Source: Octopus sinensis
Lineage: Eukaryota
DNA: 39,079 bases
Reading direction: 5' to 3'
Assembly: GCF_006345805.1 (NCBI RefSeq)
Contig: NW_021835523.1
Span: forward strand, 1-39,079
A program made the position numbers and the translations under genes. Shown one piece after another: positions 22,701-28,700 of the stretch. The notes under the pieces are model-generated. The model was not told the origin of the DNA and did not search any database. It was given only the letters and a program-made list of their open reading frames with translations. Position 1 is the first letter of the stretch. Every line of letters begins with the position of its first letter.

Positions 22701-25700
22701 CAACTATACCTGAGTCATTGTGTTTATGTTACATATGTTGCATACGTACTTATATATCCAAAATATCAACAATAAACCCCTTATAATCGAAGTTGAAACT
22801 CTCACAAAAGCCATGGGGAAAACTGCTCTGTTGCTCTGTTAGGAAGCAGTAGGGAAGAGACGGCATACTTGATTACCCTTACAAGATGCTGATTCTTTCA
22901 AAATAGACAGCGACCTTATAGATATACTAGCACTATTACTCGGCAACGCCGGGTCATACTTCTAGTGCATGCATATAGAGCTGCGTGTGTGCACACATAC
23001 ATGCGAGTACTGTCCAAATCTCCGGCCAATCACATACAGCTGGCTGGCATTCAATTGGCGTATCAAGTTTCGGGCATTTTGATTGGGTTTTGGATAGAAA
23101 ATTCACAAAATGTCACTTCTATTGATATTTTAATGGCTTTGCGGGATGACTGGAGAAATGTAAAGATGTGCACGACCACCCTTGTACGGTTTTGAATAAC
23201 CATAGAAAGTGCGAGCCCTCTAACTGAGAAATTGTGAATTTGTATAAAGGACACACGCACAGCCATTTCGCCGTTTATACATAGAGAGATATCAAAGTAT
23301 GATGGAAAGATAGATTGGGATACCAAATCCGCTTGTTATCGCATGAACAAAACTTGTTACCAAGAAGAGAACTACAGGCAGATCGTCCAACCTAGCGTAT
23401 CTTTTGTCTTTTAGTTGTTGATTGTTTCAGTCATTAGGTTGCGGCCATATTGGCGTACTATCTTGAAGAATTGTAGTTGAATGAATCGAACCCAGTATCT
23501 TTTTTAAAGCCTAGTACTTACTCGATCGGTCTCCCCTAAGTTATGGGGACTAAACATACCAAAACCAATTAAGCAGTTCTGGGGGTACAGACCGTCACAA
23601 AGACACAGGCGCACAAATAAACACAAACATACACGTACACGATAGGCTTCCGCACAGTTTCCGTTCATCAAATTCATTCAAAAAGCATTGGTCAGCCGAG
23701 GGCTACAGTAGAAGACACTTGCAGAAGATGTCATGCAGTAGGATTGAACCTCAAAATACGTAGTTGCAAAGCAAGCTGCTTAACCACACTGCCATGAATG
23801 TAAATCTGATATCTTTTATCTTTTATTTGCTTCAGCCATTTCATTGCGGCCATGCTGGGGCTCCGCCTTGAAGGGTTTTAGTCGAACAAATCGACTCCAG
23901 GGTCTCTTTTGGTGATCCGCTAGTTACAGGGACACAAACACACCAACACCGGTAGTCAAGCAGTGGTGGGAAACAAACACAAATACAGACACACACACGC
24001 GCGCGCACACACACAAATACAGACATGCACGCGCGCGCACACACATATCGGCCATTTTGTCATGCTGAACCGTTAAACCTTACACATTTTGATCTCTTTC
24101 CAATTTTCACCTCTCAATTCTTTCTGCAGAAGAGCGTAGGATCGAAACGTCAAAGATTTTTCTATTCTTCCCGAGCGTCAAACTAATTCACCTGGTTGTT
24201 TTTCTCTCACTCCTCTTGTCGAACTACATATATATATGTATATATATGTATATATATATGTGTGTGTGTGTGTGGTGTGTGTGTGTGTGTGTGTGTAGGG
24301 GGAGAATTCACGAAAAAAACAAAAGACGAAGACATGTGGTGTAGAAAACAAACAGATGTATTAGTATAACGCTCTGGAATTGAAAAAGTCTTTAACGTTT
24401 TGAGCCTACGCTCTTCAACAGAAAGGAACACAGAAAGAAACAAGGAGAGACAAAAAATGTGCATAGTCGCTAACGATCTATCATGGCGAATATATATATA
24501 TATATATATATTATATATAATATATATATATATATATACAAAACGGTCTTCTCTCAGTTTCTGTTTACCAAATCCACTCGCAAGATATTGGTCGACCCGA
24601 GTCTATATTAGAAGACACTTGCCCAAAATAGCATACAGTTAAGTAGGACTAAACCCGAAACCACGAGGTTGCTAAGCGAGCTTCTTAACCAAGCAGCCAT
24701 ACCTGGGGATATAATATAATTTTAATTAAAATTATAAATTAACATCGACTTACCGTATCTGTGATGACCAACAGATTGTAAGGTAAAGCTGAACAAATCC
24801 CAAGAGTCATAAGGAAGAAACATACTACTTTGCATCTGAAATTCCAAAGAATTGGAAAAATGAGATATAAAAAAAAACTGACGAAATTATTAGTAATAAG
24901 ATATTGACATTTATAACAAAGAAAACAGCAAGAAGTCTTCTAGATGTGACATGATAAAGATACGCGATATAGATAAAACAATCAGACATACACACACACA
25001 AATATTTATGCGTATATATATATATATATATATATATAATATATATATATATATATATATATATATATATATATACATACACTTTGGTCTCTCTTTATAT
25101 ACATGTATATATATATATATATACATGTTTATAATATATATGTCCATATATATACGTTTAAATATTTGTTGTGCAAGATTTTTTATGTGAAGTCGAAATT
25201 ATTTTATTGGCTAAACTGGCAATATGACCATTCCGAAATATAATATATATATATATACAAAAAGCAATAAAGATTCAAGTTAATTTAAATGAATTTACTT
25301 GAATATGGTACCTAACTTAGATGCACCAAAAAAAACTATACTGTTTTAACAATACAGTAATGTGGGGTGATTATAAGCGAGAAAGAAGCAACAAGAATGG
25401 ATAGGTTTTTAGTACAATCGTTTCATACAAGGACAGGCTTTATTAAATGTTGCAAAAATTACAGCATATAAACGTGTCCCGTACTCATCAGCTAAAATAC
25501 ATGTGAGTTCTCTAGACATCCTAGTGGTTGAGGCTATACTCATGAAGTAATGTAGATAATTAAGTAACATAAACAGATTTCCAAAGTTCATTAAAGTACA
25601 TCATCTTTAAAGAACTTTAATGAACTTTGGAAATCTGTTTATGTTACTTAATTATCTACATTACTTCATGAGTATAGCCTCAACCACTAGGATGTCTAGA

Positions 25701-28700
25701 GAACTCACATGTATTTTAGCTGATGAGTACGGGACACGTTTATATGCTGTAATTTTTGCAACATTTAATAAAGCCTGTCCTTGTATGAAACGATTGTACT
25801 AAAAACCTATCCATTCTTGTTGCTTCTTCTCGCGTATATATATATATATATATATATATATATATATATATGTATATATCTGCACACACTAACATATGTA
25901 TATATGTTTATGAATATGCTTATATATCTATATATACATACACATACGTATATGTATATATACATATATATATTCATACATACATATATATATATATCTA
26001 CATCTATCTATCTCTATATGTATATATATATATATATATATATATATTATATATATATATATATGTACGCACACATGTGCGCACGCACACATACATTATT
26101 TTGTGAGACATACTATATATCCGAGTAATCCGAGTATCGAATATCTATAGCTGTTTGTGTTTTGTCGATGTCAGTTATATAATTGTATGTAAAATTTATA
26201 TAATATAGATTTGGAACATGAAGACATAAGAGACCATAGGCTAACTGTACGTTAGAGAGGACGCAGTAAATTACTGGTACATGCTTTCTCGTTTTTCACA
26301 AGTGTTTGGTTCCAAATGATATCCCGCGAAAAACCGTGTTAAATGAATCGGTGATAAATGAATAATCGAGCATATGGGAAACAACGGGCTTAGTTCCGAG
26401 TCCCGAAGCTCTCCCCAGCAATTTACCTAAATAACCAAGTGTTTGGTTCCAAAGGAAATCCCGCAAAATACCGTGTTAAATGAATCAGTGAATAGTAGAG
26501 CATATGGGAAACAACGGGCTTCGTTACGAGTCCCTAAGCTCTCCCCAGCAATTTACCTAAATGACACCATTAAAAACAGGCTTTTAGTACACATAATAAT
26601 TTTGTTTCGTGGTTGGAATTTTAATAACACATGATCAGCGAATAGTTCTTTCAGCAAAAGGCGCGTAGCTCAGTGGTGAGGGCATCGGGTTCACAATCAT
26701 GAGATTGTGAGTTCGGCTCCTGGACGAGGTTGTGTGTTGTTTTCTTAAGCAATACACTTTTTTCGCGTTGCCTCAGTCCACTCAGCTGTAGAAATGAGTT
26801 GTGACGTCATTGGTGCCAAGCTGCATCAGCCTTTGCCTTTCCCTTGGATAACATCAGTAGCACGGAGAGGAGAGGCTGGTTTTCATGAGTGACTGCAGGC
26901 CTTCCATAAATAAAAAAAAACAACCTTGCCCGACTTGTTCCTCGTAGGCTCACTCTCTACGTAAAATCTCCCGGTCATTCGTAAAGTTCCCGGGTCAAAC
27001 TTAATATGTTAATACGTTTTCTATGTCAAGAATTAATATTTAACAGGATAAAAAAAGCACAGTGAATTTACCGTGGGGAATGAAAATTCAAGGTTTCGGA
27101 TACAGACCTTTTAAGAGAAAATTTGACAGAAGAGAAATTAATGTGGGAAAGAAAGAAAGAGAAACAAAGAGAGAGAGAGAGAGAGAGAGAGAGAGAGACT
27201 GACGGAAATAGAGAGAGAGAGAGCACAATTTTTTTACAAGCGATATATCTAAGAAACCGACTGCAACTGAAAAAAAGGACCATGTGAGTTTTTTGTAGTA
27301 TATTCATTAAGTGCCCTCATTGTGGGAAGTAGTAATTCTTAGATATCATGTTATGTCACTGAATAATTTGCAACTGGTATAAATAAGGCGGCGAGCTGGC
27401 AGAACCGTTAGCACGCCGGGCGGAATGCGTAGCCGCATTTCGTCTGCTGTTACGTTCTGAGTTCAAATTCCGCCGAGGTCGACTTTGCCTTTCATCCTTT
27501 CAGGGTCGATAAATTAAGTACCAGTTACGCAGTGGGGTCGATGTAATTGACTTAATCCGTTTGTCTATCCCTGTTTGTCCCCTCTGTGTTTAGCCCCTTG
27601 TGGGTAGTAAAGAAATAGGTATAAATAAATCCAGGTATTACTAGATTTACGTTATTCTTCTGTTGAAAGACAGCAGTCTAAACGTACAAAGATATTGTCT
27701 CTCTTTACTCTTTTGCTCTTTTACTTGTTTCAGTCATTTGAATGCGGCCATGCTGGAGCACCACCTTTAGTCGAGCAACTCAACCCCGGGACTTATTCTT
27801 TTTGTAAGCCCAGTACTTATTCTATCGGTCTCTTTTGCCGAACCGCTAAGTGACGTGGACGTAAACACACCAGCATCGGTTGTCAAACACACAAACACAA
27901 ACACATACATACATATATATATATATATATATATATATATATATACATATATACGACAGGCTTCTTTTAGTTTCCGTCTACCAAATCCACTCACAAGGCA
28001 TTGGTCGGCCCGGGGCTATAGCAGAAGACAGTTGCCCAAGGTGCCACGCAGTGGGACTGAACCCGGAACCATGTGGTTGGTTAGCAAGCTACTTACCACA
28101 CAGCCACTCATGTCTGTTAGCAGAAAAAAGAGATACAAAAAGGTGTTGTTAACCTGGAAGTTTCACCGTTTGTTGAAAGGCAACAACCAGAAAGAAAACC
28201 ACCAAGAGAATATAACACTCACCTAACTTAACTAAATCACAATATGGCATGAATAACATTAAGATCAAAGACAGTCAACAAATAAGCAGAATATTTACCT
28301 ATCAACTGCGTAGATTTCTGAGAAGGGTCTCCTGGTTTTATTTTGGATTCGCAATGGCTTACATTCTAAATTGGCGATTCTTTCTTCTCTGGTTTTACCG
28401 AGACTTCCTACTGGAGAACTCTCAGCTTCATTCATGGTCCTTAAAGCCGTGCCATTACCTGTTAAGAGAGATTATATACACACATTTATATATCTAAATA
28501 CACACACAAACACACACATATGTATGTATGTATACATGTATTATACAATATACACATACATACAGATAAATATTTCAATTAACCTGAAGATTGACTGTAA
28601 CCATAACTCGAATTATTACGAATTGTACAGCCATGAAACGATCGTAGTGTTTTACTCTTTATCTTTTATTAAACTTTTAATAATTTTGATATATATTTAA

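Follow-up and report, generated by a model that had tools for sequence, protein, structure and literature searches.

A Hammerhead-Bearing Palindrome in an Octopus Transporter Intron Is Very Probably a Head-to-Head Insertion of Two Penelope-like Element Ends

Structure of the Palindromic Insertion

The window analyzed in this study is the whole of a 39,079-nt stretch of Octopus sinensis (contig NW_021835523.1, assembly GCF_006345805.1). It carries a palindrome in an intron of an equilibrative nucleoside transporter (ENT) gene, and the features of the locus are listed in Table 1. A sequence-only reading of the window had described a near-perfect 457-bp palindrome at 25377..25833. The results showed that this was accurate for the palindromic part: the inverted repeat 25383-25597/25614-25828 has 215-nt arms with 100% complementarity and a 16-nt spacer, and the arms are prolonged to 25377 and 25833, the sole mismatch being a 1-nt length difference in a T run. 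The whole feature is larger (25258-25834), and the 119-nt tail that exists only on the left had been missed. BLAST against a natural full-length copy of the element aligned 25251-25613 in inverted and 25596-25838 in sense orientation; no other piece of the family was found elsewhere in the window with this copy. Both arms abut TA tracts. Very probably, two truncated 3′ ends of a Penelope-like element (PLE) of the Hydra clade were recently inserted head to head into (TA)n to give the palindrome, likely with one cDNA primed on each cut strand.

The letters of the 16-nt spacer are the element's own next 16 nt in the longer arm. Over 340 bp, the tailed arm with its tail matches other loci at 100%, and the short arm is off by one gap; identity to other loci is 99.6-100%. 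Judged by this identity, the window copy is very recent. The 27-mer across the window junction occurs a single time in the 2.7 Gb assembly. The extra G next to the short end was present at 12 of 16 short ends (15 paired loci, chosen by arm similarity and not by the G).

Table 1. Features of the insertion and its host intron (positions in the window)
Feature	Position	Strand	Evidence or remark
ENT exon downstream of insertion, 423 nt from tail end	24754..24835	-	Frame and GT/AG ends
ENT host intron, 3,463 nt	24836..28298	-	GT/AG ends, frame continuity; PF01733 further downstream on same strand
Left (TA)n target tract	25238..25257	.	Sequence
Whole insertion: very probably two 5′-truncated 3′ ends of Hydra-clade PLE, head to head	25258..25834	.	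BLAST to natural full-length copy
119-nt tail, on tailed arm only	25258..25376	-	Full-length copies continue 55 nt further to the start of the open reading frame (ORF)
Pseudo-long terminal repeat (pLTR) part of tailed arm, 221 nt	25377..25597	-	Element-sense on minus strand
Type I hammerhead, sense in ENT pre-mRNA; predicted cut after 25413	25407..25497	-	Identical to + copy
2-bp microhomology at inversion junction	25596..25597	.	Antisense arm ends 25597, sense arm starts 25596
Short-ended arm, 238 nt, without tail	25596..25833	+	One 1-nt gap relative to other copies
16-nt unpaired spacer with 10-bp self-complementary stretch, at truncation hot spot	25598..25613	+	
Type I hammerhead; predicted cut after 25798	25714..25804	+	Rfam RF00163, 18.4 bits, E 0.048
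Hammerhead helix III and loop, self-complementary over all 8 nt (dimer signature)	25790..25797	+	
Extra G between short end and TA tract	25834..25834	+	Element RNA has U there
Right TA-rich microsatellite target	25835..26064	.	

The Penelope-like Family

The Penelope origin suspected in the sequence-only reading was confirmed, and the arms are 3′ ends of a young Hydra-clade PLE. A genome search with one arm returned 820 first-look candidates, and 40 scored candidates gave 43 matches at 99-100% identity. Exact patterns counted 709 short ends and 953 tailed ends in the genome, and the reversed-pattern control counted 0. Full-length copies have a 4,590-bp unit from pLTR to pLTR, in which the hammerhead cut is followed by 36 nt, the short end, the 119-nt tail, 55 nt and the ATG. 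The outer ends of 50 insertions run into TA tracts, although most of these loci were picked by pattern and one pattern includes 4 TA letters.

The single ORF encodes a reverse transcriptase (RT) followed by a C-terminal GIY-YIG endonuclease (EN), the latter called by motif alone. The motifs RWK (in the L116 frame), DKT (in L116 and L128), YRDD, a CxCX5C linker (CKCRIKSKC), a C-terminal GIY-YIG-like motif, CxxC (CQLC) and CxH (CVH) were recognized. The frame at L128 is open over 845 aa with YRDD at 253 and IY..YIG at 726. Atlas neighbours of the ORF at 0.93-0.96 carry HTH_animal or RVT_1, and a PDB search of the ORF gave no match. The L128 ORF (L128:2337-4871, minus strand) has two long Asn-rich inserts between the RT thumb and the linker, which is unusual for short Hydra elements. 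The loci L031-L152 fall into two subfamilies set apart by approximately nine linked pLTR changes. In both, arms differ by only about 0.35%, which suggests that each subfamily was active recently.

Hydra-clade PLEs are characterized by RWK, DKG replaced by DKT, a CxCX5C linker, a C-terminal GIY-YIG with CxxC/CxH, a (TA)n target and hammerheads (Craig et al. 2021, PMC8557442). The octopus element shares the RT and EN motifs and the (TA)n target with this clade and carries a canonical hammerhead. Elements of the clade are typically below 3 kb, a tendency that is not diagnostic, whereas the unit here has 4,590 bp; the extra length lies in the Asn-rich ORF inserts and about 1.5 kb of 3′ non-coding sequence. 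The supplement of PMC8557442 contains one octopus family, Hydra-1_Obim. Compared by eye alone, the RT motifs of our element follow those of Hydra-1_Obim, but the length and the hammerhead differ, our element having a stem II of about 60 nt and a G10.1-U11.1 pair. The clade is thus known, and by this comparison the octopus element appears to be a family distinct from Hydra-1_Obim.

Pairing of Short and Tailed Ends

The ends that were clustered came from the whole of C1 (with 53 short and 58 tailed ends) and from the first 142 Mb of C2 (with 27 short and 42 tailed ends) in the assembly. The 128 clusters comprised 47 outward-facing pairs, 4 same-strand tandems and 77 single ends, and none faced inward. 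By exact pattern, every one of the 47 outward pairs joined a short end to a tailed end; there were no short-short and no tailed-tailed pairs. Under independent choice about half of the pairs should be mixed, and the chance of the observed outcome would be 0.49^47, or approximately 3e-15. An inverted tailed partner was found for 41 of the 53 short ends in C1 (28 by pattern and 13 more by BLAST). The others were simple truncated copies (9), a tandem (1), a copy with an inverted internal piece only (1) and the locus L136 (1). Short-plus-tailed is the usual insertion form of this PLE family. The family also has the further anatomy of PLEs, namely pLTRs from partial tandems, inverted 5′-truncated copies and a one-sided tail. 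No published count of a strict short-plus-tailed rule, of same-source arms or of junction hot spots was found, older PLE papers in subscription journals lying outside the search.

Some loci were more complex. Inverted internal ORF pieces lie between the arms at L048, L139 and L142, like L1 twin-priming inversions. At L034, an unrelated 340-bp palindrome (about 90% self-complementary) stands right after the short end (L034:3155-3494), and this entire block is repeated 6.3 kb away (L034:9461-9799), possibly as another fold-back family or a local duplication.

Arm Lengths and Junctions

Arm lengths were measured in 29 of the 41 C1 pairs. The two arms ended within 20 nt of each other in 12 pairs; in 12 others the short arm exceeded the tailed one, and in 5 the reverse held. 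Pairs within 20 nt were in clear excess (12 observed; mean 1.3 and maximum 7 in 10,000 permutations). In a wider set of 49 pairs, which is biased to arms longer than 220 nt, the same classes in the same order held 14, 19 and 16 pairs. Since either arm can be the longer one, neither can simply have been copied from the other as DNA. The arm ends also have a hot spot: 8 of 58 lie 225-242 nt from the short end, compared with 1 and 2 in the adjoining 25-nt windows, and the window junction falls in it.

Partner arms are closely alike. They agreed at 390 of 397 diagnostic calls, whereas shuffled pairs mismatched at 46%, and they differed at 93 of 26,281 columns over 53 pairs. Where the overlap was at least 850 nt, the partner was the closest sampled arm in 9 of 9 pairs. 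Local templated inserts were seen at the junctions of L036, L037, L076 and L131; we take these to resemble products of polymerase-theta end joining.

Hammerhead Ribozyme

Each arm had been described as holding a complete, outward-facing type I hammerhead, and the same 91-nt motif was indeed found in both. It consists of a 6-bp stem I, CUGAUGA, a long stem II closed by G10.1-U11.1, GAAA, a 2-bp stem III and GUA, that is, the core boxes, three helices and NUH cut site of a type I hammerhead. The two predicted cuts (Table 1) were correctly positioned on this structure. A match to Rfam Hammerhead_1 (RF00163) was obtained in a 196-bp search over all 45 model positions, with a 54-nt stem II insert, but it was weak, and its 18.4 bits did not reach the gathering score of 34. 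The Rfam scan of the whole window gave no hammerhead and only microRNA-model matches to the hairpin and to microsatellites, all below the gathering score.

The core boxes were retained in 103 of 110 arms spanning the hammerhead. The sequence-only reading feared that the G-U closure of stem II might be an inactivating defect. Decay at 10.1-11.1 is ruled out: G10.1-U11.1 replaces G10.1-C11.1 in all 111 recovered motifs, a set for which the search pattern favours intact boxes, and it is a family trait. The 8-mer of helix III and loop was self-complementary in 110 of 111 motifs from 73 loci, in three versions. Its intermolecular duplex has a calculated energy of -5.8 kcal/mol; in the monomer, helix III costs +1.0 kcal/mol and has a pair probability of 0.02. 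The sister subfamily has a full Watson-Crick 8-mer (duplex -10.0 kcal/mol), a form seen in 33 of 110 motifs. When a single arm was folded freely, the hammerhead was not favoured (z -0.7 to 0.06), and stem I had a probability of 0.002 when the arm was folded with its tail. Thermodynamics alone therefore does not show the active fold.

PMC4209133 describes the dimeric type I hammerheads that PLEs and retrozymes carry in metazoans as inefficient monomers, and a single motif tested there did not cleave. The octopus motif shares their 6-bp helix I, 1-2-bp helix III and palindromic loop. It differs from them in that U replaces the conserved C at 11.1, stem II is long, and the two copies form an inverted pair in which no intramolecular dimer is possible. 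On these models the hammerhead would be of the dimer-dependent kind, and a lone intronic copy should barely cleave even when unmasked. The hammerheads would be passengers of the pLTR that need a second copy for helix III. A non-LTR retrozyme, which has tandem direct repeats with one hammerhead each, was rejected: the arms are inverted, and there is no tandem array at the locus.

Host Gene and Masking

The ENT gene lies on the minus strand, with PF01733 at 4514-4723 (E 8.9e-11) and 17322-17408. The insertion had been assigned to ENT intron 2. It does lie within a GT/AG intron of ENT, but the number depends on an inferred exon 1. The distance of about 540 bp to the next exon was right, position 25377 being 542 nt away. 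That exon presumably corresponds to the first transmembrane segment (TM1) of ENT. The exons flanking the intron had no profile or PDB match of their own, and NCBIfam searches of single ENT exons likewise gave no useful result. The exon region is single in the genome, and no second copy of the ENT locus was found as an empty site.

The antisense arm is transcribed first in the ENT pre-mRNA, as had been stated. The proposed sequestration of the ribozyme by the duplex is also predicted by folding: in the full palindrome all hammerhead pairs (stems I-III) have a probability of 0.0, and forcing the hammerhead costs 135 kcal/mol. The intron is thus predicted to stay uncleaved, with the hammerheads buried in a 215-bp hairpin of the pre-mRNA. 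The masking follows from the head-to-head geometry of any copy. It is probably redundant for a lone copy because the ribozyme is dimer-dependent.

Several other repeats were seen in the window. Distant inverted pairs resembling short interspersed elements (74-95%; for example 6320-6536/27897-28113 and 15377-15548/35062-35233) lie within the ENT gene and could yield further pre-mRNA duplexes. The left flank of the insertion (25201-25243) is the end of another very high-copy repeat, seen as a depth jump among contigs of other runs. A GC-rich 10-bp minisatellite (47 copies) lies at 33330-33808 and a 130-bp tandem duplication at 26299-26562. Two fragments had no Pfam match: the one at 20822-21100 (minus strand) resembles a mariner transposase C-terminus, and the one at 31138-31590 (plus strand) a Helitron helicase C-terminus.

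Alternative Explanations

A single cDNA could fold back at a local palindrome, prime itself and generate the second arm by copying the first as DNA. The 12 of 29 C1 pairs with ends within 20 nt of each other, the several junctions on short self-complementary stretches and the variants common to both arms all suit such a snap-back. At the window locus, however, the longer arm (238 vs 221) is the short-ended one, and it is its partner that has the tail. A short cDNA that folds back has no template for a tail, and a tailed cDNA cannot yield a longer short arm. The short arm was longer by more than 20 nt in 12 of 29 pairs, in some by kilobases. Provided that the assembly is right, snap-back is excluded for the window locus; it may account for those symmetric pairs whose tailed arm is at least as long as the short one, and as the general explanation it is very unlikely. 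The palindrome might also have been created by the assembly or by fold-back of long reads, a concern raised in the sequence-only reading. The contig is unplaced and only 39 kb long, the arms are near perfect, and the junction was found once and is unbridged among the listed contigs of independent runs. These contigs pool all copies of the family, so that letter differences in them are not informative on editing at the locus. But the flanks are not mirrored, with the tail on one side and the TA tract on the other exactly as in other pairs, and the spacer is genuine element sequence. Joints of this class do exist outside the assembly: among the contigs listed for three further DNA-type runs, 15 head-to-head joints lie at other positions, and one joint recurs in two studies. 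We therefore consider an artefact highly improbable.

The sequence-only reading suggested a self-masked intronic ribozyme, an editing substrate or a source of small RNAs. An exapted host element could be such a ribozyme, or a hairpin acting on ENT through editing, splicing or small RNAs. The position in an ENT intron, 423-542 nt from the acceptor, and the predicted masking are in line with such exaptation. So is the heavy editing of palindromic repeats and of lizard Penelope copies reported in PMC5625713; by analogy, editing of the hairpin by ADAR is plausible, though not a new idea. But a copy nearly identical to other loci has had little time to be exapted, many other sites in the genome show this geometry (41 of 53 C1 short ends), and the ribozyme is of the dimer type. 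A special ENT device is unsupported for such a recent copy. The suggested source of endogenous small interfering RNA (siRNA) is disfavoured and unlikely, since PMC12479628 reports that molluscs, O. bimaculoides included, lack an siRNA pathway. Exaptation is very unlikely; the palindrome probably does not serve to regulate the host gene, and the hairpin would at most be used by ADAR as a generic substrate, without a selected role in the host. The least probable alternative, with hardly any weight, is a non-autonomous fold-back unit, like a miniature inverted-repeat transposable element, that transposes as a whole palindrome. Arm lengths are similar at L061, L074, L108 and L060. The exact junction, though, exists once in 2.7 Gb, and the similar loci differ in junction letters and span both subfamilies, L108 being of opposite polarity. 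Their similarity reflects the hot spot and not a propagating unit.

Besides the unbridged window junction, several observations weigh against the insertion of two separately primed PLE ends. In Pfam, the ORF reached RVT_1 only on one fragment with E 0.0035, below the cut-off, and the 845-aa frame had no match, GIY-YIG included. At L136 (G000:C1:122812700-122819700), an inverted near-full-length copy ends short, and an orphan tail lies about 0.9 kb further out; this locus may break the pairing rule or reflect nested insertion. L047 is a symmetric insertion whose arms belong to two different sub-variants at linked sites, and it may show two templates. Gene conversion or assembly polishing could add to the likeness of arms. 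No empty target site that would reveal the cut geometry or a target duplication was seen. In the PLE assay of PMC11167929, the start site did not depend on the strand, so that the assay does not lead one to expect a strict assignment of start sites to strands.

Proposed Mechanism

Under the favoured head-to-head insertion, the endonuclease of the element would cut both strands of the TA tract. One DNA 3′ end would prime at the end of the RNA tail and the other at the short end, that is, at two fixed sites on the RNA. Both cDNAs would stall after about 220-240 nt at the hot spot, and their 3′ ends would anneal at the 2-bp microhomology before host end-joining repair fills in. PMC11167929 reports that a PLE cuts and extends both strands in vitro, that synthesis starts at two sites bounding the tail, and that the hammerhead there cleaved only with protein.

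A stricter form is obligate asymmetric double priming, in which one ribonucleoprotein with one RNA, or with RNAs of one source locus, assigns the tail-end site to one strand and the internal site to the other. We regard this form as tentative, with somewhat less than an even chance. In its single-RNA variant, the second RT, in displacing the first cDNA, would in many cases halt at the same place. Double priming on a single RNA would account for the regular pairing of a short with a tailed end, for the variants that partner arms have in common and for the surplus of symmetric junctions. This surplus speaks for one RNA as the template; L047 and the kilobase-long overlapping arms are easier to explain with two RNAs of one locus.

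In L1 twin priming, two primers on opposite target strands produce an inversion with a microhomology joint. The octopus insertions likewise suggest opposite-strand primers, an inversion and a microhomology joint. The 3′ end is not duplicated in L1, whereas the two octopus arms both start from the 3′ end and overlap in sequence, which yields a palindrome. The Poseidon element PAc of Anolis, as presented in PMC11167929, shares two RT start sites bounding the tail, the cutting and extension of both strands, an AT-rich target and a pLTR hammerhead. It belongs to another clade, and its start sites are alike by strand, whereas the ends here are nearly always of different type; its hammerhead overlaps the ATG, which here lies about 210 nt downstream. 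The generic PLE anatomy in PMC8557442 comprises pLTRs, inverted 5′-truncated copies and a one-sided tail. The inverted truncated copy, the tail at one end and the partial tandems (L113, L114, L116) are shared. The tail described there has 30-40 nt compared with 119 nt here, and the window copy is minimal, without an ORF.

Implications

The window locus itself is ordinary mobile-DNA debris, and inverted Penelope insertions are already known. The strict short-plus-tailed pairing is the new clue. How tandem and inverted PLE structures form is named as an open mechanistic question in PMC8557442. The approximately 700-950 very young ends with countable junctions constrain the mechanism of PLE inversion to one that gives a short and a tailed end, same-source arms and hot spots. 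If the single-RNA form of double priming is true, it would be a target-primed pathway distinct from L1 twin priming, testable in the PAc in vitro system.

If double priming is obligately asymmetric, each such event would enclose its own hammerhead in a hairpin, irrespective of the strand transcribed. Intronic insertions could thereby become harmless, and a large set of ADAR substrates could be seeded. Introns of Xenopus are depleted of retrozymes, according to 10.64898/2026.07.22.740005, which makes masking as a tolerance effect testable. For work on repeat editing in octopus, the PLE family would also offer a tractable supply of long double-stranded RNA.

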